Source of the DNA: a phage
DNA length: 64,000 nucleotides
Direction: 5' to 3' (one strand)
Sequence record: PZ445523.1
Shown: positions 26,559 through 43,426 of the stretch, one piece after another
Layout: each line of letters starts with the position of its first letter
How positions within the stretch are numbered: the first letter of the stretch is position 1
Translations under genes and position numbers: made by a program
The notes under the pieces: model-generated
What the model saw: the letters and a program-made list of their open reading frames with translations, nothing else
Databases searched by the model: none
What the model was told of the DNA's origin: nothing

Positions 26559-26776
26559 GTCACCTTTAAGCAGTATTCTTCTACATGTTGTTTACGACCT
26601 TTCTTATCAATAAAGGTATATTCAACGAATGTTCCAATGTAGTCTTTATCTACATCATGTGGACTATTAATTGGACATTTAGTACGGCAAATGCGTTCCC
26701 ATTGACGAATAATTACTGCCTTATTCTTTGGGTCATACGGATGTGGATAATGTATATTCATAATAACGGTTCCCAA
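26549..26776 (-). CDS. Hypothetical protein (75 aa)
   Basis: ORF on the early strand. Confidence 0.45.
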   Translation of the reverse strand: MGTVIMNIHYPHPYDPKNKAVIIRQWERICRTKCPINSPHDVDKDYIGTFVEYTFIDKKGRKQHVEEYCLKVTWL

Positions 26777-27225
26777 TCAACAATCACAATTTCTAATTTA
26801 GAGGAATATGTATCTAAAATCCCCTCAATAATATCCCAGTTCCCTTTACCTATGCCTGCACCAATCCTAGGCATATAGATTGTAGGTTTAATCAGTTTAT
26901 TTTCACCAAACTCATTTAATTCTAACATACAATTCATTAAAGCGGAATACTCAAAATTTGGCCCTGGTTGAAATTGAGTATAAAGATTGAAGCAGTAAGC
27001 TTTATGAGTCCTAAAGTATTTTTCATAGACTGAGTAAGAACCGAGTTTAGTTACATCGCCCCATTCTGTCTGTAATTTATCAGCTTCCAAAATTTTAGGG
27101 AAAGCTTTGGTTAATTGACCCGCTACGCCTGAACCCATAGTATGAAAACAATTGCATCCATGCGCAATATTTTTACCTTCAGCGAAAAGGGCGACAATAT
27201 CGCCCTTGATATATTTTACAATCAT
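26758..27225 (-). CDS. Macro-domain protein (ADP-ribose binding or hydrolase fold)
   Basis: Macro-domain signatures: NC...MGSGVAGQ (glycine-rich loop) and PRIGAGIGKG. Confidence 0.55.
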   Translation of the reverse strand: MIVKYIKGDIVALFAEGKNIAHGCNCFHTMGSGVAGQLTKAFPKILEADKLQTEWGDVTKLGSYSVYEKYFRTHKAYCFNLYTQFQPGPNFEYSALMNCMLELNEFGENKLIKPTIYMPRIGAGIGKGNWDIIEGILDTYSSKLEIVIVDWEPLL

Positions 27226-27569
27226 CTAGTACTCAATCCTCGATTATAAGAATCTACCAAACGGTCAACCATTGAATGACAAGCGGCTTTATCTTTCTCC
27301 TCCGCAACTGAGCATTCTAAGGTATTCCACTTTTTAGCATATCGTTTTAATAATGTATCGTTTTTGTATCTGCTTGATTTATCTCTTTCTCCGTCTTTAT
27401 ATGCATATATTAATTTCTGTGCAAATTCAGCTTGGCATGCTTTATTTTTCCCACAATAATCTGCCGCAGTGCGGTTTACATATTCTCTAATTTCAGTATA
27501 TGATGTATCTGCTGACGCAGAAGCAGAAAATGAAATTAATCCTATACATAAAACCAAAATTTTAGTCAT
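27222..27569 (-). CDS. Secreted Cys-containing protein (115 aa); occupies the T4 vs position
   Basis: Signal peptide (MTKILVLCIGLISFSASASA); four Cys; lies between tk and regB; identity with T4 Vs not verified. Confidence 0.45.
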   Translation of the reverse strand: MTKILVLCIGLISFSASASADTSYTEIREYVNRTAADYCGKNKACQAEFAQKLIYAYKDGERDKSSRYKNDTLLKRYAKKWNTLECSVAEEKDKAACHSMVDRLVDSYNRGLSTR

Positions 27570-28107
27570 TTACTATTTCCAAAAGTTTATTATTTTTAAG
27601 GTAATTAGCCTTTTCTAGGACTTCAGAAGCATATTTAGAACCAGCTTTAACATTCCATCCCGAATTATAAGAGGATATTGCTTTTCTTATATCGCCCTTA
27701 TGTATATTTAACCAATAAGAAAGTTCAATGTACGCCCAGGAAGCTGAATTGGATCGTTTATTCAACATTCTTTTTATTTCAGCATCGGTCATATTATAAC
27801 CAAGTTCCTTAACTCTTGCTCGCATAGTAGGCAAATAATTTTGGAACATTCCATAGGCGTGATGCTTTGGTTTAGATTTTAAATTAACTCCGCCAGAGCT
27901 TTCTTGCCATAAAATAGCAGCCATTATATGACCTAATCCGCTCTTGTGGATATTTTTGTGTGTTTTATATTTTCCATCCTTAGAAAATTGTTCCCCGAAT
28001 TGATACGCGTAACGCATGTTATCGAGTTGGACATTACTGAAAGTATGCTCGGAGCTATGTGCCATCATTGAAATGGCCAATAGACCAGCGAGTAGTGCTT
28101 TTCTCAT
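27562..28107 (-). CDS. Secreted lytic transglycosylase-like protein (SLT domain)
   Basis: Signal peptide; SLT-type motifs WQESSGG (catalytic Glu), YGMFQ and SSYNSG. Confidence 0.55.
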   Translation of the reverse strand: MRKALLAGLLAISMMAHSSEHTFSNVQLDNMRYAYQFGEQFSKDGKYKTHKNIHKSGLGHIMAAILWQESSGGVNLKSKPKHHAYGMFQNYLPTMRARVKELGYNMTDAEIKRMLNKRSNSASWAYIELSYWLNIHKGDIRKAISSYNSGWNVKAGSKYASEVLEKANYLKNNKLLEIVND

Positions 28108-28114
28108 GCTTACC

Positions 28115-28576
28115 TCATTGAGTTTTAATTACTGCTTTAGAAGCCTTTCCTGGTAAACGACGACTGTTGATAATTGCCATCCTACATTGAAGTGACGGGT
28201 CTTTGAACTTCTCGTTAGGTTTACAAACTGTAAATCCAAGCCAAAGATTTCCATCTGTGATTTCTAAACGTCCAGGACGATATTCAACCCCATCAATAAA
28301 ATCCTCATCAATGTCAGGACGCGGAGGCATACTCAGGAATTCATTAACTTCTAAAACATGGTCTTTTATTTTATGGAATAATTCAAAAACGTATGTCTCA
28401 TCAATCTCCCGTTGAATTGCACGATCAAGAAGATGCTGAGAATATTTTAGATGAAACGATGAGACCCCTGCTGCTTTTGATGCCTCACGAATCTCATTGT
28501 TAATTTGACGAAACTCCGACTCAAAGTGACGACGAAGCTTATTTCGACGGATAAAAACTTCAGTGTTGATAGTCAT
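28115..28576 (-). CDS. regB: Sequence-specific endoribonuclease RegB
   Basis: 153 aa; sequence matches T4 RegB (MTINTEVFIRRNKLRRHFESEFRQINNEIREASKAAGV...). Confidence 0.92.
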   Translation of the reverse strand: MTINTEVFIRRNKLRRHFESEFRQINNEIREASKAAGVSSFHLKYSQHLLDRAIQREIDETYVFELFHKIKDHVLEVNEFLSMPPRPDIDEDFIDGVEYRPGRLEITDGNLWLGFTVCKPNEKFKDPSLQCRMAIINSRRLPGKASKAVIKTQ

Positions 28577-28604
28577 GTTATTCTCCTCTTAACTGATAGG
28601 AAAA

Positions 28605-28633
28605 TTATACCACAGCCAAGAGGAAAAGTAAAC
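28605..28633 (-). promoter_or_regulatory. Early promoter upstream of regB
   Basis: Minus-strand GTTTAC, about 18-nt spacer, TATAAT; then AAGAGGAGAA and the regB ATG. Confidence 0.55.
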
Positions 28634-28635
28634 AG

Positions 28636-28914
28636 TTATTCTTTAAATCTAATCAATTTATTCATAGACTTTGAAACTTCTGCACGAACCTCATGTAAGT
28701 TTTTGAGCTGTTCAAGACGCTGCTCATAGTAAGCAATTTCATCTTCTTCGAGACAGTCCTGTGAATCTTCTTTAAGATAACGTGCATAGTCCTGGAAAGC
28801 TTTACGAACTACTTCCTGGAAGTCATCAAGACTTTGAATTTTCTTAGGAGCAACAGATACACGACGAGGGGCAGTATAATACTCATAACCAAACCCTGCG
28901 CTTAATTGAGCCAT
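28636..28914 (-). CDS. Hypothetical protein (about 92 aa; vs.3-position)
   Basis: Start reset to [13 protein letters not shown] (overlap coupling with upstream stop). Confidence 0.4.
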
Positions 28915-29228
28915 TAGTATTTTTCCTCGGGTTGGAAAATGGAACGACACGCCCACATGCTTGCTTCTTTCAGACGGTCAATCGCGTTACGAATCTGGGT
29001 GATGCGTTCATGAGCCTGGTCCAGTTCTTGTTCAGAAACTTCTTTGGTATCCAAGTTCATATAATAGGTAACATGTTCATCTTCCAGAGCTTTAAACATT
29101 AACCCAAGACGAACTTCAGCATCTTTAATAGCATTCACTTTACCAATTTTGTCATCGGTATGCGGTTTATAACCTTTAATATCTTCAATCATATTTGACT
29201 TCCTCGCCAGTACCCAAATCATATTCAA
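28914..29228 (-). CDS. Hypothetical small helical protein (92-104 aa); position of T4 vs.4 (Acb2) by synteny
   Basis: Two genes upstream of the GrcA-like gene, as recalled for vs.4; start ambiguous (M1 or [14 protein letters not shown]); sequence identity not verified. Confidence 0.4.
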
Positions 29229-29406
29229 CTAAACGAATAGGTTCATGAATGCCATATCCTTGAACAGAAATTTCTGTCGTAGGATAAATTCCATCAATAT
29301 CCCCCATATTCCATGCTTCATTAAATTGTTGCTCACCTGAATTACTAAACCATTCAGCGAAAGCATTTAGTACATCTTCAGAACCTTCAATAATTATCTT
29401 TGCCAT
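29185..29406 (-). CDS. Hypothetical acidic protein (73 aa)
   Basis: ORF coupled to the GrcA-like gene upstream. Confidence 0.45.
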   Translation of the reverse strand: MAKIIIEGSEDVLNAFAEWFSNSGEQQFNEAWNMGDIDGIYPTTEISVQGYGIHEPIRLVEYDLGTGEEVKYD

Positions 29407-29768
29407 TATAAGCTCTCGGTAAAGGTACGAGCGATAACGTCGCGCTGCTGTTCCGGAGTCAGAGAGTTAAAGCGAACTGCATAACCGGATACACGGATGG
29501 TCAGCTGCGGATATTTTTCCGGATGCTTAACTGCATCTTCCAGGGTTTCACGACGCAGAACGTTAACGTTCAGGTGTTGACCACCTTCAATTTTAACTGT
29601 AGACTGTGGCTCAATTTCAATTTCACGGGCATGTAAACCGTAGAAAATTTCTGGGTCTACAAAAGAGTCCTCTTTAAAGGTTTTAGAGACAATAATTCGC
29701 GCTTGAATACCATCTTCAAAATAAATAGTACCTTTATGCGTGCCTTCAAGAATTTGATATGCTTTCAT
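29406..29768 (-). CDS. Autonomous glycyl-radical cofactor (GrcA/YfiD-like)
   Basis: C-terminal 60 aa nearly identical to E. coli YfiD, including the glycyl-radical motif RVSGYAVRF. Confidence 0.85.
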
Positions 29769-29774
29769 ATAACC

Positions 29775-30155
29775 TCAATTAGAAAATAAATTTATCCAAG
29801 ATTGTTCTTTAATTAAAAATGGCTCAGAATCATATGCCATTAAACTTTGCGTAATTAATCCTTTAAAAGGTCCATCAATAAATTCCATGGTAAAATATGG
29901 AATTTTATTCATTAGCTGCGCGTTAGGAGCAGTGCACAAAACTCTGCATCCTTTGAATACACCCTTTTGTAATTTGTATTGCTTGGGATAAAATTCGCTC
30001 AAAATGTTGTTATTTGCCAAAATTTCAAAATGATTCACCAATTTATTTTTAATAGTTTTTGGTGAAAAATAAAGATATTCGAAAAGTTGCGCATCTGTCA
30101 TCATTGCATTCCGATTACGAAAAACTGTGGACGAGTAATACCACCAATACAACAT
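29775..30155 (-). CDS. Hypothetical protein (126 aa, start uncertain)
   Basis: ORF on the early strand; alternative start at MMTDAQLFEY. Confidence 0.45.
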   Translation of the reverse strand: MLYWWYYSSTVFRNRNAMMTDAQLFEYLYFSPKTIKNKLVNHFEILANNNILSEFYPKQYKLQKGVFKGCRVLCTAPNAQLMNKIPYFTMEFIDGPFKGLITQSLMAYDSEPFLIKEQSWINLFSN

Positions 30156-30688
30156 TTACTATTGCAACAGTACTGTACAGTGTCAATATGAGCATCATAA
30201 ATCTTATCCATATCAGGAGATTTGACAGGCTCATCAATTATATATAAAATTCGCGAAAGCGATAAACCTCTGAACTTGCTTCCTTTATTACCAATAAAAC
30301 TGCGCACAGAATCAGTAAATAAACGAAAACGTATATCATTATTAGAATAACGCGAAAATTCCTTTTTGATGTTATTTGCAGAAATTTTAGCGTAAGCTGA
30401 AGTATTAGAAAGAACAATAACTGTTCCGCCATCATACAGCCAATTAGCAGCAAAGTTAGTCACAGCAATTGATTTACCGGATTGACGTCCACCATCTATA
30501 CGAAGTGTGCAGTACTGTTTAAGTAATTCTTCAAATGGCGGGATATATTCGTTTTTACAAATTTCTTCTACTCTAGCATCAGAATGGTGTGTAAAAGCAT
30601 TCATCAGGGATAGATAAGGACCAGTTAAAAATGTTCTCATTTTATTCTCTCTAAATTTGGGCCATTCCATGGCGCATGAATTGTCCAT
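30101..30688 (-). CDS. Small P-loop NTPase-like protein (start uncertain)
   Basis: Walker A-like GGRQSGKS and Walker B-like ILYIIDEP. Confidence 0.45.
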   Translation of the reverse strand: MDNSCAMEWPKFRENKMRTFLTGPYLSLMNAFTHHSDARVEEICKNEYIPPFEELLKQYCTLRIDGGRQSGKSIAVTNFAANWLYDGGTVIVLSNTSAYAKISANNIKKEFSRYSNNDIRFRLFTDSVRSFIGNKGSKFRGLSLSRILYIIDEPVKSPDMDKIYDAHIDTVQYCCNSKCCIGGITRPQFFVIGMQ

Positions 30689-30793
30689 TTCTGTATTTAC
30701 CCATTACCGCACTCAGGCTCGACCTTATTACAGGTTGGCGGGAATCCCTCATAGAATCATGAGGTCCAGGTTGTTCCCATATTTCTTATTTGC

Positions 30794-31267
30794 TTATTTG
30801 AATGATTTAACGTACTGAATAGAACCTTTACTATTCACAAAGGCAATTTTACCATTTTTGTTATACATGGTAGCAGTACGCTGATAGCCATAAGTTTGTT
30901 TACCAGATTGATAACCAACTAATGCAAAATTATCTTCGCCCATTTTATTCTGCTTAGCGCGGATACGTTCATGACCGTGCGCCATAAGAACCTTAGCGTC
31001 GCCAGTTGCAATGGATCTACGAGTTTTTTCATCTTCAACTGTATTAACAAAGTCGTCAAATGAATCAAATTTAGCATGAGATTTATTATACAGTTTTCCA
31101 TCTACTGCATAATTATATCCCTGTACATCCATCTCAACTTCTGTACCATCATCCAATACAGCAGTGATTTTTTGACCTTTTTTAAATTTCAAAAGATCAG
31201 TAAAAGATTCAGCAATAATTTGAGAATTAATAGCTGCTTCAGTAATAAATTCTTGATATGTTTTCAT
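30794..31267 (-). CDS. Internal-protein-like capsid-targeted protein (157 aa)
   Basis: N-terminal capsid-targeting leader MKTYQEFITE followed by AA, as in T4 IPI/IPII/IPIII; payload unrecognised. Confidence 0.6.
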   Translation of the reverse strand: MKTYQEFITEAAINSQIIAESFTDLLKFKKGQKITAVLDDGTEVEMDVQGYNYAVDGKLYNKSHAKFDSFDDFVNTVEDEKTRRSIATGDAKVLMAHGHERIRAKQNKMGEDNFALVGYQSGKQTYGYQRTATMYNKNGKIAFVNSKGSIQYVKSFK

Positions 31268-31276
31268 ATGTTTCCT

Positions 31277-31693
31277 TTAAATGTAAATATTTTTACCGTA
31301 ATACTTGTACCAATGTGGTTTCATTAAAATTTTTTCATCAAGTCGTTGTTGACTCAATTTAATAGCTGATTTGCATGGATTATAATCATTTTTCCATTCT
31401 ACTGGAATATCGCTGATGTCAGGAACTTCAGTATCTTTTATACTGAACCCGCGTTTTAAGCATTCCGTTATAATGTCTGATTGACGCTTTCGCAAAAATT
31501 CTAACTTATCGTAAAAGAAAGTAACATGACCAGAACCTAAAATAAACTCGGAAGATATTTTAAAATCTTTAACCCGCTTACCATTTGCCACATGTTTACG
31601 AACTATACCAAAAACACGCGGCAATTCACGGTATTCTGCGATTAAATGTTGATCAGCAAGTTCAGATACTAAAGTCAAATTAATACGAGTCAT
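31277..31693 (-). CDS. denV: Endonuclease V (pyrimidine-dimer DNA glycosylase)
   Basis: 138 aa; about 75 percent identical to recalled T4 endo V ([17 protein letters not shown]..). Confidence 0.93.
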
Positions 31694-37016: not shown

Positions 37017-37682
37017 TTAAAATTTCATTTTTCGACCTTTAAACCATCCTTCTGGAATTGGGTCAGTTTTCTTAATACGTTTAGAAACTTTTTCATCTAA
37101 TGAATGAATCCACATCATACCAAATTGGGAATTCTTTTCACCTTTCTGGTGATTATTTTTAGCGTGAATTTCTTTCATTTTATTAATAGTTTCAAGAGTA
37201 TGATGCTTATTTAAAAATCTGCTATTATTTAAAAATTTTTCTTTGTATTCAGGAGTTGACCATAAACGTTTAAATACATTTGAACCATTTTTACGATATT
37301 TTTCTTGAAGTAAAATATCATTTTCAAAACGTGACTTAAACGATTTAGCTCCTTTTAAGCTAGCATCTTTCTTCTGGTTTAGCATTCCAGGAATATTTAC
37401 ATGATCCCATCCGCCTTCACCGCCAAGTTTTAAATTATACACATCTGGTCTATTTAAAAACTCTTCTGTGACAATATTTTTCTCGGCTTCAAGCATAGAT
37501 TCTTTATCATCAAAATACTCTAATATTTCTTTAGAAAAATTTTCTATACCATATTTATCTTGGGCTCTTTTTAATAATTTACCAGAACCCATATATCCAT
37601 CATCTAAATTTTCGGTAGAATGCACACCAATATAAATTTTATTATTAATTTTATTTGTTATTTTATAAGTGTAATAGAACAT
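37017..37682 (-). CDS. segB: GIY-YIG homing endonuclease SegB
   Basis: 221 aa; GIY-YIG motifs (YTYKITN...IYIGVHS...YMGSG); sits inside the tRNA cluster as in T4. Confidence 0.85.
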   Translation of the reverse strand: MFYYTYKITNKINNKIYIGVHSTENLDDGYMGSGKLLKRAQDKYGIENFSKEILEYFDDKESMLEAEKNIVTEEFLNRPDVYNLKLGGEGGWDHVNIPGMLNQKKDASLKGAKSFKSRFENDILLQEKYRKNGSNVFKRLWSTPEYKEKFLNNSRFLNKHHTLETINKMKEIHAKNNHQKGEKNSQFGMMWIHSLDEKVSKRIKKTDPIPEGWFKGRKMKF

Positions 37683-40052: not shown

Positions 40053-40737
<685 letters not shown>

Positions 40738-40738
<1 letters not shown>

Positions 40739-41463
40739 TATAGTACCTTTAGTGTATTTTTAATTTTAGAAAAAAGTTCTTCAAGAGAACCATCGTTTGT
40801 AATTACTAAATCGCCATCACGAATTGGCAATCCAGCTTCTGTAATATGTGTATCATTGGATTTTTGACCAGGACGAACTACATGAATTACTGTAGCACCC
40901 ATCGCCCTAGCCGCATCCATTTCATGATCTTGACGAGTATCAGGAACGATATAATAATCATAACCTGTGTTAAATTTATCAAGATAATCTAAAGCAAATA
41001 ATTTTACCCAGTACATGCGGTCGAAGTTATTAACAATCAAATCCGTACCTAGGGCTTGCATCAGACGACGGACTGACCATTGATCTTCAATATTATTTAT
41101 AACGTCAATAATCTTGTTAAATGCTACGGAATTAACTGATTCTTGTCCTTCGTCATCAAAAACAAACACACCTTTAATTGGGCTTTTACCATTAAGATAG
41201 CAAAATGCTTGTTCCATAATCGTGATTACTTCTAATTTAGTCAGATTTAAATTAGTCTCACGATCATAGTCAATTCCTTCAAACTCTTTACGAGTTAAGC
41301 AAGGATAGTCGGTATTTGCTGCAAATACCCCCCATGCATAAACCAATGCATCCTTAATAGGACCAGCAAGTTGGTATTTAACTGCAGAATAATTGCTCAT
41401 GATAAAATCAGCAGTAGTATCTTTTCCACTACGCTTTACACCGCTTAAAAAGATTAGTTTCAT
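40738..41463 (-). CDS. 1: Deoxynucleoside monophosphate kinase gp1
   Basis: 241 aa from MKLIFLSGVKRSGKDT (P-loop); matches T4 gp1; ORF-track extension rejected. Confidence 0.92.
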
Positions 41464-41488
41464 GTGTTTCTCCTCAAATTTAATTAAG

Positions 41489-41514
41489 ATTATAACACAC
41501 AAAACTGAAGCATT
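41489..41514 (-). promoter_or_regulatory. Candidate MotA-dependent middle promoter upstream of gene 1
   Basis: Minus-strand AATGCTTCA (MotA-box-like), about 11-nt spacer, TATAAT; then GAGGAG and the gene 1 ATG. Confidence 0.45.
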
Positions 41515-42149: not shown

Positions 42150-42974
42150 TTAGATATTTGACCAGACTTTGTTTGCAGAGAAACGTTTTCCTTTTGAAAC
42201 GAACTGCTGAAGTGGCATTAACACAACGTTCGCCCAGTCTTTCGGGGCGATTTCAACAAGGCTACCCATAATATTACCAGGTATATATGCCTTAATCATT
42301 TGGTCTGCACCCCTAAATCCTTTCACTTGACTCCAATCAATTTTTAATTTCGTTTTATTAGTAATAGTAGGTGTATTTGCATATTGCTTTAAAAGCTCTT
42401 CTAGGAATTGCTGACGAGCTTTAGGTGGAATATAGTGCAAGTTTAATCCGTACATTAAATTATGCTTACCTAAACCAAGGTAAATTATCAAAGGAAATTT
42501 ATCCCAGTAAGGAAGAGTTTCCTTGTGTTTAGCATCATAAGCAAAAGCATATATTCGTCCCGGCTGCGGGCGAACAACTTTATGTCCTTTTACTTGCTTA
42601 ATAGTTTCAGCAAACCACTTTCTGGTTTTATTATTAATTGCTGCACCTTCATTACGAATTTTATCGCGCAATGTTTGTCTGAATGAATTTATCATAAGCA
42701 GTTGTCTTTCTTGCTTATTGAGTTTATTCATTGGTTTTGATTCAAGCTTTTGAATCTTTTCAGCCGTTTTAATTCCTGAAGCATATTTTGACATTGCCGA
42801 AGTAAACGTAGAGTATTTGATTCCTCTTTCTTCAGCAAATTGCTTTCCTGTCATTCCTTTTGCTTTGGCCTTTTTATATTCAAGACCTATCTGAATCCAT
42901 TTCTTTTCATTTAATGATTGCTTAACCTTTGGAACTTGGGGAGTGCTTTCATTAATTATTTGAAAAATAGCCAT
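42150..42974 (-). CDS. 2: DNA end protector protein gp2
   Basis: 274 aa; matches T4 gp2 by length and synteny. Confidence 0.88.
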
Positions 42975-43426
42975 TATGCCCCCTTAAAGCCAAGAGCTCG
43001 TAATCCATCTTCTGTTAGAATTCTAAATTTTATTCCACGCTTTTCAGCTAAAGATTGTGCTGCTTTCCATTTGTCAGTGTTCACAGACCAGGTATAAATT
43101 TCATTCATAAATCTTTTCTTCGCTGCTGTTGTTAGATGCGCCGGTTTAACTGGTGGTTGTGTTTCTTTTTTAGGTTTTATTTCAATAAAAAATTCTTGCC
43201 CAGAAGAATCTTTCATCCAAATATCCATGAAGTATCTACGTTTTTTCCCTTCTGCATTACAAAAATAAGGAATTACTGCTGTTTCACTACCCCATGCAAT
43301 AATTTCTGGATTTTTATCTAACCATTCAAAAAAGAATTTTTCCCAATTTGATCTATACGTAATTTTTTTAGGGTCACCTCTATACTTTGATATATTTTTA
43401 GGAACCCATTTTCCAGAATATGCCAT
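42974..43426 (-). CDS. 4: Head completion protein gp4
   Basis: 150 aa; matches T4 gp4 by length and synteny; overlaps gene 2 start. Confidence 0.88.

Follow-up and report, generated by a model that had tools for sequence, protein, structure and literature searches.

A probable orthologue of the T4 anti-CBASS gene vs.4 (acb2) with a recombinant gene body between T4-type flanks

Introduction

The gene studied here is related to vs.4 of phage T4. T4 Vs.4 forms a hexamer with three molecules of cGAMP bound, at a Kd of ~30 nM (PMC10097602). Base stacking is provided by Y8 and F82, and hydrogen bonds and salt bridges by Y8, H11, K23 and R79, while the hexamer interfaces involve L29, A66, A73 and A77 and, more mildly, F33. 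In addition, T12 caps a helix, and the substitution S74N perturbs the interaction with the ligand (PMC10097602).

The Acb2 protein of phage PaMx33 depends on Y11 and K26 for dinucleotide binding, both of which are essential, and it carries two further pockets on its three-fold axis, which bind cyclic trinucleotides via R67 and T74 with contributions from A70 and I71 (PMC10312549). T4 Acb2 has D61 and T68 at the positions of R67 and T74 and does not bind cA3, and the substitution D61R does not rescue binding (PMC10312549). Cao et al. proposed that T4 Y37, A57, L60, D61 and T64 clash sterically with cA3, and of the T4-like homologues, the two that were assayed (T4 and CHI14) are restricted to dinucleotides (PMC10312549). 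Some members of the Acb2 family no longer act against CBASS and have 3'cADPR, the Thoeris signal, as their ligand (PMC12393519). Because of such switches, the ligand cannot be deduced from family membership alone. T4 acb2 is also the trigger of the Panoptes defence, and 14 of 15 T4 escapers carried mutations in acb2/vs.4 (PMC12657218).

Here we describe a vs.4-like gene in a stretch of phage DNA of 64,000 nucleotides (sequence record PZ445523.1), the whole of which is referred to as the window.

Gene identity and genomic context

The initial annotation had proposed, by position alone, that a minus-strand ORF between regB and a GrcA-like gene is the counterpart of Vs.4/Acb2. Sequence similarity bears this out. 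The 92-aa protein matches PDB entry 7UQ2 (Vs.4) over residues 1-92 in a phmmer search of the PDB (E=4.8e-29), and it scores 58.5 bits (7.7e-16) against Pfam PF24729 Acb2_Tad1_hairpin, covering profile positions 1-58 of 58 and exceeding the gathering cut-off of 27 bits. It also matches PHROG 717 at 1.6e-28, which is the family by which Jenson et al. defined Vs.4 homologues (PMC10097602). Similarity to PaMx33 Acb2, suggested at the outset as a check, is detectable as well: a profile of 24 aligned T4-like homologues (A2) reaches 7UQ2 at 1.5e-41 and the PaMx33 Acb2 structures (8H2J/8H2X/8H39 and the 8IXZ series) at ~4e-5. Single-sequence matches in the PDB to tropomyosin, SET and chemoreceptor proteins (E 0.17-1) and matches of the profile to haptoglobin receptor and Smc were rejected as coiled-coil noise. 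In NCBIfam, no model matched the 92-aa protein at E<=0.01, and no curated equivalog name is found there. Near-identical proteins are already named 'Acb2/Tad1 hairpin domain-containing protein' in UniRef, and a relative from Erwinia phage COW86c, 83.7% identical, is annotated 'Acb2-like anti-CBASS protein'. Judged by these matches, the ORF is very probably the orthologue of T4 vs.4, alias acb2 (anti-CBASS 2). This is a known gene family at its known place, and its biology is already known.

The order regB-vs.3-vs.4-vs.5-vs.6 matches the annotations of T4 (GT7), RB51 and RB32 (Table 1). As initially described, the ORF lies two genes before the GrcA-like gene, with vs.5 in between, and relatives of the latter gene, vs.6, are annotated 'autonomous glycyl radical cofactor GrcA' in related phages. 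Farther upstream lie genes that we take, from their translations, to be denV and the lysozyme gene e. None of the five neighbours scanned (vs.3, vs.5, vs.6, vs.7 and regB) contains the Acb2 family PF24729, and there is accordingly no competing Acb2 candidate among them. On the 3' side of vs.4, vs.3 consists of T4-type DNA and is translationally coupled to vs.4, the vs.4 stop codon and the vs.3 start codon overlapping in TAATG at 28916..28912.

Over 24 kb, the window shows 95-96% identity to several Tequatrovirus genomes and is identical to none of them. The vs block itself differs between genera: Bp7 runs from vs.4 directly to regB, without vs.3, and has no GrcA-like vs.6, and SP18 has vs.3 and lacks vs.6. 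A scan of 27500..31400 for sigma-70 promoters and intrinsic terminators returned nothing informative beside vs.4 and no excess over shuffled sequence (12 promoter sites vs 14.3 expected, and 2 terminators vs 2.4 expected); T4 early and middle promoters lie outside the models of the tool.

Table 1. Features of the vs.4 locus and the acb1 gene, in window coordinates.
Feature	Position	Strand	Description
vs.4/acb2 CDS	28914..29192	minus	92 aa plus stop; ATG 29192..29190, TAA 28916..28914
In-frame extension up to TTG (104-aa form)	29193..29228	minus	Wholly inside the vs.5 CDS; present in 0/24 homologues
GAGG Shine-Dalgarno-like motif	29205..29202	minus	9 nt 5' of ATG, within the 3' end of vs.5; read from the sequence, putative function
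Minimal recombinant patch	28938..29157	minus	SP18/Bp7-type vs.4 allele, not T4; crossovers within 29178-29157 and 28938-28909
regB endoribonuclease	28115..28576	minus	Pfam REGB_T4 8.1e-69; PHROG 1323
vs.3	28636..28914	minus	PHROG 2037 at 1.7e-40; T4 GT7 annotation Vs.3; 95-100% identity to T4
vs.5	29185..29406	minus	PHROG 1986 at 6.3e-43; RB51/RB32 annotation vs.5
vs.6, GrcA-like glycyl-radical cofactor gene	29406..29768	minus	Pfam Gly_radical 1.8e-18
vs.7, vs.8	5' of vs.6	minus	PHROG 2049 and 1488
acb1 (gene 57B)	40053..40511	minus	152 aa; Pfam PF23474 Anti-CBASS protein Acb1, 7e-60

Translation start

The ORF list gives the minus-strand ORF as 28914..29228, i.e., 104 aa from a TTG codon, and the initial annotation had left its length at 92-104 aa. 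The lower value stands and the upper one is unlikely. All 24 aligned homologues begin with MIEDIKGYK or M(S/A)IEDIKGYK, at the position of the ATG at 29192, and because of this agreement we regard the 92-aa form as the gene product and the TTG extension as an artefact of ORF calling. The 104-aa form was rejected on the homologue N-termini and on the placement of the Shine-Dalgarno-like motif and the ATG, and the extension is probably not translated as part of the Vs.4 protein. The vs.4 start and the vs.5 stop overlap by 8 nt (ATGATTGA).

The open frame up to 29228 could also be taken to mean that the ORF is not expressed as 92 aa, either because the TTG form is made or because the gene is a decaying remnant. 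We give this practically no credence, as the reading frame is intact, the Shine-Dalgarno-like motif and ATG are placed as in the homologues, the stretch upstream of the ATG sits within the vs.5 coding sequence, and vs.4 is kept across 1232 phage records. A chance ORF is excluded by the same counterparts, which were found by tblastn.

Predicted fold and functional residues

The AlphaFold2 (AF2) monomer model, built on the alignment of the 24 homologues, has a pLDDT of 86.6 and forms a hairpin of helices 13-45 and 54-85, in line with the early description of the ORF as helical. The best PDB matches of the model in Foldseek are 7uq2 chains (E ~6e-7, TM 0.73-0.78), followed by the PaMx33 Acb2 structures 8h2x/8h2j; matches to CnrX and to designed helices (E>0.2) were dismissed as generic helical hairpins. 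The predicted model has the fold of an Acb2 protomer, i.e., two long antiparallel helices with short N- and C-terminal segments.

A global alignment with T4 Vs.4 shows that 12 of the 12 T4 residues Y8, H11, T12, K23, L29, F33, A66, A73, S74, A77, R79 and F82 are identical in the window protein, where they correspond to Y8, H11, T12, K23, L29, F33, A70, A77, S78, A81, R83 and F86. The cyclic-dinucleotide pocket (Y8, H11, K23, R83 and F86) is the same as in T4, and so are the residues at the positions of the hexamer interfaces (L29, A70, A77, A81 and F33), the latter being a statement about residue conservation only. The sole change among the residues mapped from the list of Jenson et al. is from T4 L60, whose role is uncertain, to I64. 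Across the 24 homologues, Y8, P10, H11, K23, R83 and F86 are invariant. The Tyr and Lys that bind the nucleotide could also be traced, since PaMx33 Y11 and K26 align with Y8 and K23 of the window protein in the profile alignment, and the Tyr/Lys-rich N-terminus remarked on initially consists of Y8 together with K6, K9, K15, K18 and K23. By every defining feature that can be read from sequence and predicted structure, the protein belongs to the Acb2/Vs.4 family.

Mosaic structure of the gene

Within vs.4, the gene body is recombinant: its allele is of Gaprivervirus/Dhakavirus type and lies between T4-type flanks. DNA identity to T4 is 95-100% through vs.6, vs.5, vs.3 and regB. Reading along the minus strand, informative sites are T4-type down to 29178, SP18-type from 29157 to 28938, and from 28909 onward of T4 type once more. 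In a sliding comparison, identity to T4 is as low as 38-52% between ~29106 and 28967, where identity to SP18 (a Shigella phage of the genus Gaprivervirus) is 90-100%. In the alignment of the window, T4 and SP18, the informative sites inside the patch are SP18-type in 80 cases vs T4-type in 3. The quantitative analysis used SP18; Bp7 (Dhakavirus) was compared by DNA alignment and gives the same mosaic picture. The exchanged segment spans ~220-270 bp and is essentially the body of the vs.4 ORF.

Both crossovers fall where the DNA codes for the invariant protein ends. In the family alignment of the 24 T4-like homologues, these ends are invariant and the centre is hypervariable. The exchanged part comprises the hypervariable tip of the hairpin together with the first half of helix 2; the invariant ligand-binding ends are unaffected.

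Proteins at least 90% identical to the window protein occur in 37 of the 1232 homologue-bearing phage records, and the identified carriers of the allele are all phages of 168-177 kb, e.g., SP18, VR20, Bp7, WG01, QL01 and UPEC01. The best DNA identity over the gene is ~92% (TH54), which implies that the donor is unsampled or the event old, and that the direct donor is not among the phages sampled. The allele combined with T4-like flanks was found in 0 of 50,697 phage records in a search with a 1.7-kb query; no record covers more than 94% of this query, and the best matches are all T4-like flanks aligned in two pieces. The exact protein is absent from a collection of 15 billion proteins; the nearest sequence is 98% identical.

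An allelic swap of this kind is ordinary T-even mosaicism, of which this is a tidy example. Its wider interest lies only in the clean, gene-sized replacement, by which the hypervariable middle of acb2 moves between T-even genera with the ligand-binding ends fixed.

Proposed function and ligand range

Based on homology, predicted fold, gene order and the conservation of functional residues, we infer with high confidence that the window protein most likely acts by the T4 mechanism, as a hexameric sponge that would sequester 3',3'-cGAMP and related cyclic dinucleotides and thereby blunt CBASS. Each protomer would be a two-helix hairpin, and six protomers would build the hexamer. Three pockets, to each of which two protomers contribute their N- and C-terminal segments, would hold 3',3'-cGAMP or a related cyclic dinucleotide. 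Within each pocket, Tyr8 and Phe86 would provide the stacking on the bases, and the residues touching the phosphates and bases would be His11, Lys23 and Arg83. The sequestered signal would be kept off the CBASS effector, which would raise the threshold for abortive infection. Hexamer assembly, ligand binding and CBASS inhibition are thus predicted properties of the window protein. One point that weighs against a full equivalence with T4 is the centre of the protein (residues 34-73), which is only weakly similar to T4 and 4 residues longer, and the geometry of the hexamer could differ in detail.

The lining of the three-fold pocket is the one place where the function could differ from that of T4, since it departs from T4 at nearly every position. 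In the global alignment, T4 Y37, A57, L60, D61 and T64 correspond to E37, A60 (with H61 inserted beside it), I64, T65 and R68, i.e., only one of the five blocking residues is kept, with the extra His as its neighbour, and the lining is more polar and charged. The swap may therefore have altered or widened the ligand range, so that a sponge of the Acb2 family would accept, beside dinucleotides, a second ligand in the form of a cyclic trinucleotide or some other immune signal. This would fit the observations that the swap is confined to the pocket-lining region, that the swapped centre includes the helix-2 surface forming the three-fold pocket, with an almost entirely different lining, and that the centre is hypervariable among T4-like phages while the ends are invariant. 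However, PaMx33 R67, A70, I71 and T74 correspond to T65, R68, N69 and D72 in the profile alignment (R67 and T74 map to the same residues via T4 D61 and T68), so the two residues needed for cA3 in PaMx33 are T65 and D72 here. The precedents also speak against it, as the T4 and CHI14 homologues are dinucleotide-only and D61R gave T4 Acb2 no cA3 binding (PMC10312549). Furthermore, helix 54-85 of the model is continuous and lacks the kink to which the larger pocket of PaMx33 has been ascribed, and the hypervariability may reflect mere weak constraint on the hairpin tip. Since R67 and T74 are both missing and helix 2 is unkinked in the monomer model, binding of cA3 would not be expected, and the R67/T74 positions place the protein outside the trinucleotide-binding PaMx33/JBD67 subgroup. 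Overall, a widened or altered ligand range is unlikely. We are equally doubtful about a more general version, in which the variable core of acb2 would pass between T-even phages like a cassette, with the invariant ends as homology arms. This Tequatrovirus would then have gained a core of Gaprivervirus/Dhakavirus type, and the pocket would be re-lined (E37, H61, I64, T65, R68 and D72), which could give a second ligand or evasion of host systems that sense the sponge, e.g., Panoptes. If the acb2 middle did tune the second pocket, which is hypothetical here, the swap would be a natural experiment in sponge specificity.

A complete switch to the Thoeris signal 3'cADPR, without CBASS inhibition, is far less probable still. 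It would make the window protein an Acb2-fold protein like Acb2_43 (Hadary et al.), and specificity changes of this kind do occur in the family (PMC12393519). However, Acb2_43 has extra N- and C-terminal beta-strands and other pocket residues, namely L6, V7, H5, K19 and K55 (PMC12393519), whereas the window protein retains every cGAMP-contact residue of T4 and has termini ~90% identical to T4 Vs.4. Added terminal strands of the Acb2_43 type were not found in the AF2 model, which has only isolated bridge residues 8 and 91. With T4-type termini and no added strands in the model, the protein would fall outside the Thoeris-inhibiting Acb2_43 subgroup. Sequestration of cyclic dinucleotides, as in T4, thus remains the preferred reading.

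Implications and other genes in the window

The window also encodes acb1 (Table 1), and with acb1 and acb2 the phage has both known T4 anti-CBASS functions. The acb1 ORF adjoins the dNMP kinase gene (40738-41502), an arrangement shared with T4 gene 57B. A phage with this vs.4 is probably also sensitive to Panoptes, given the role of T4 acb2 as its trigger. The assignment aids annotation and helps predict which host defences are overcome (cGAMP-type CBASS) or triggered (Panoptes, which senses Acb2).

Several further genes were observed. A minus-strand ORF of 155 aa at 26758-27225 is a homologue of tk.4 and matches PHROG 335 'phosphatase'; the T4 GT7 annotation states that Tk.4 'contains A1pp phosphatase motif', i.e., a macro domain. 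This putative product might act on signals derived from ADP-ribose. Between vs.8 and denV, a minus-strand ORF of 157 aa at 30794-31267 starts with MKTYQEFITEA and matches PHROG 3155 'internal virion protein' at 6e-102. The unannotated gap between vs.7 and denV in T4 GT7 is 673 bp and has room for vs.8 only; therefore, the ORF seems to be an additional internal-protein gene that occupies a variable slot. In SP18, too, vs.8 is followed by a gene for an internal head protein. Finally, of the minus-strand ORFs at 42974-43426 and 37017-37682, one has a TnsA-like endonuclease N-terminal domain (2e-21) and the other a GIY-YIG domain (seg-like homing endonuclease), and both probably belong to the mobile endonuclease genes that T-even genomes typically carry.

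Comparison with known systems

Compared with T4 Vs.4, the window protein is encoded in the same genomic slot, is predicted to have the same two-helix hairpin fold, and shares every residue of the cGAMP contacts and hexamer interfaces. Identity to T4 is 91% in the first 33 residues and 89% in the last 19. Over the whole protein it is ~62-65%; residues 34-73 of the window protein have diverged, are 4 residues longer and cannot be aligned with confidence.

The Vs.4 proteins of Gaprivervirus and Dhakavirus (SP18, VR20, Bp7, WG01, QL01 and UPEC01) are closer, with protein identities of 93-98% and the same length of 92 aa, and their DNA is 90-100% identical in 40-nt windows over the gene body. UPEC01 Vs.4, for example, differs at K50 (E) and I85 (V) of the window protein in the A2 alignment. 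In contrast, the flanking genes of these phages are only 25-70% identical to those of the window, whose flanks are T4-type.

PaMx33 Acb2 (8H2J, 8H2X and 8IXZ; Huiting et al. 2023; Cao et al., PMC10312549) shares the family and the fold, and the KGY motif with the Lys 15 residues on, as well as the C-terminal R and QP motifs, align. It differs in having ~18% identity to the window protein in the Foldseek alignment and in its trinucleotide pocket, where R67/A70/I71/T74 stand against T65/R68/N69/D72.

Tad1 (Thoeris anti-defence 1) is related through the common helical hairpin domain recognised by PF24729, and neither the single-sequence nor the profile search of the PDB matched a Tad1 structure at E<=1. 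Tad1 proteins are of greater size and use other elements to bind gcADPR, whereas the window protein is a minimal Acb2-type protein of 92 aa.
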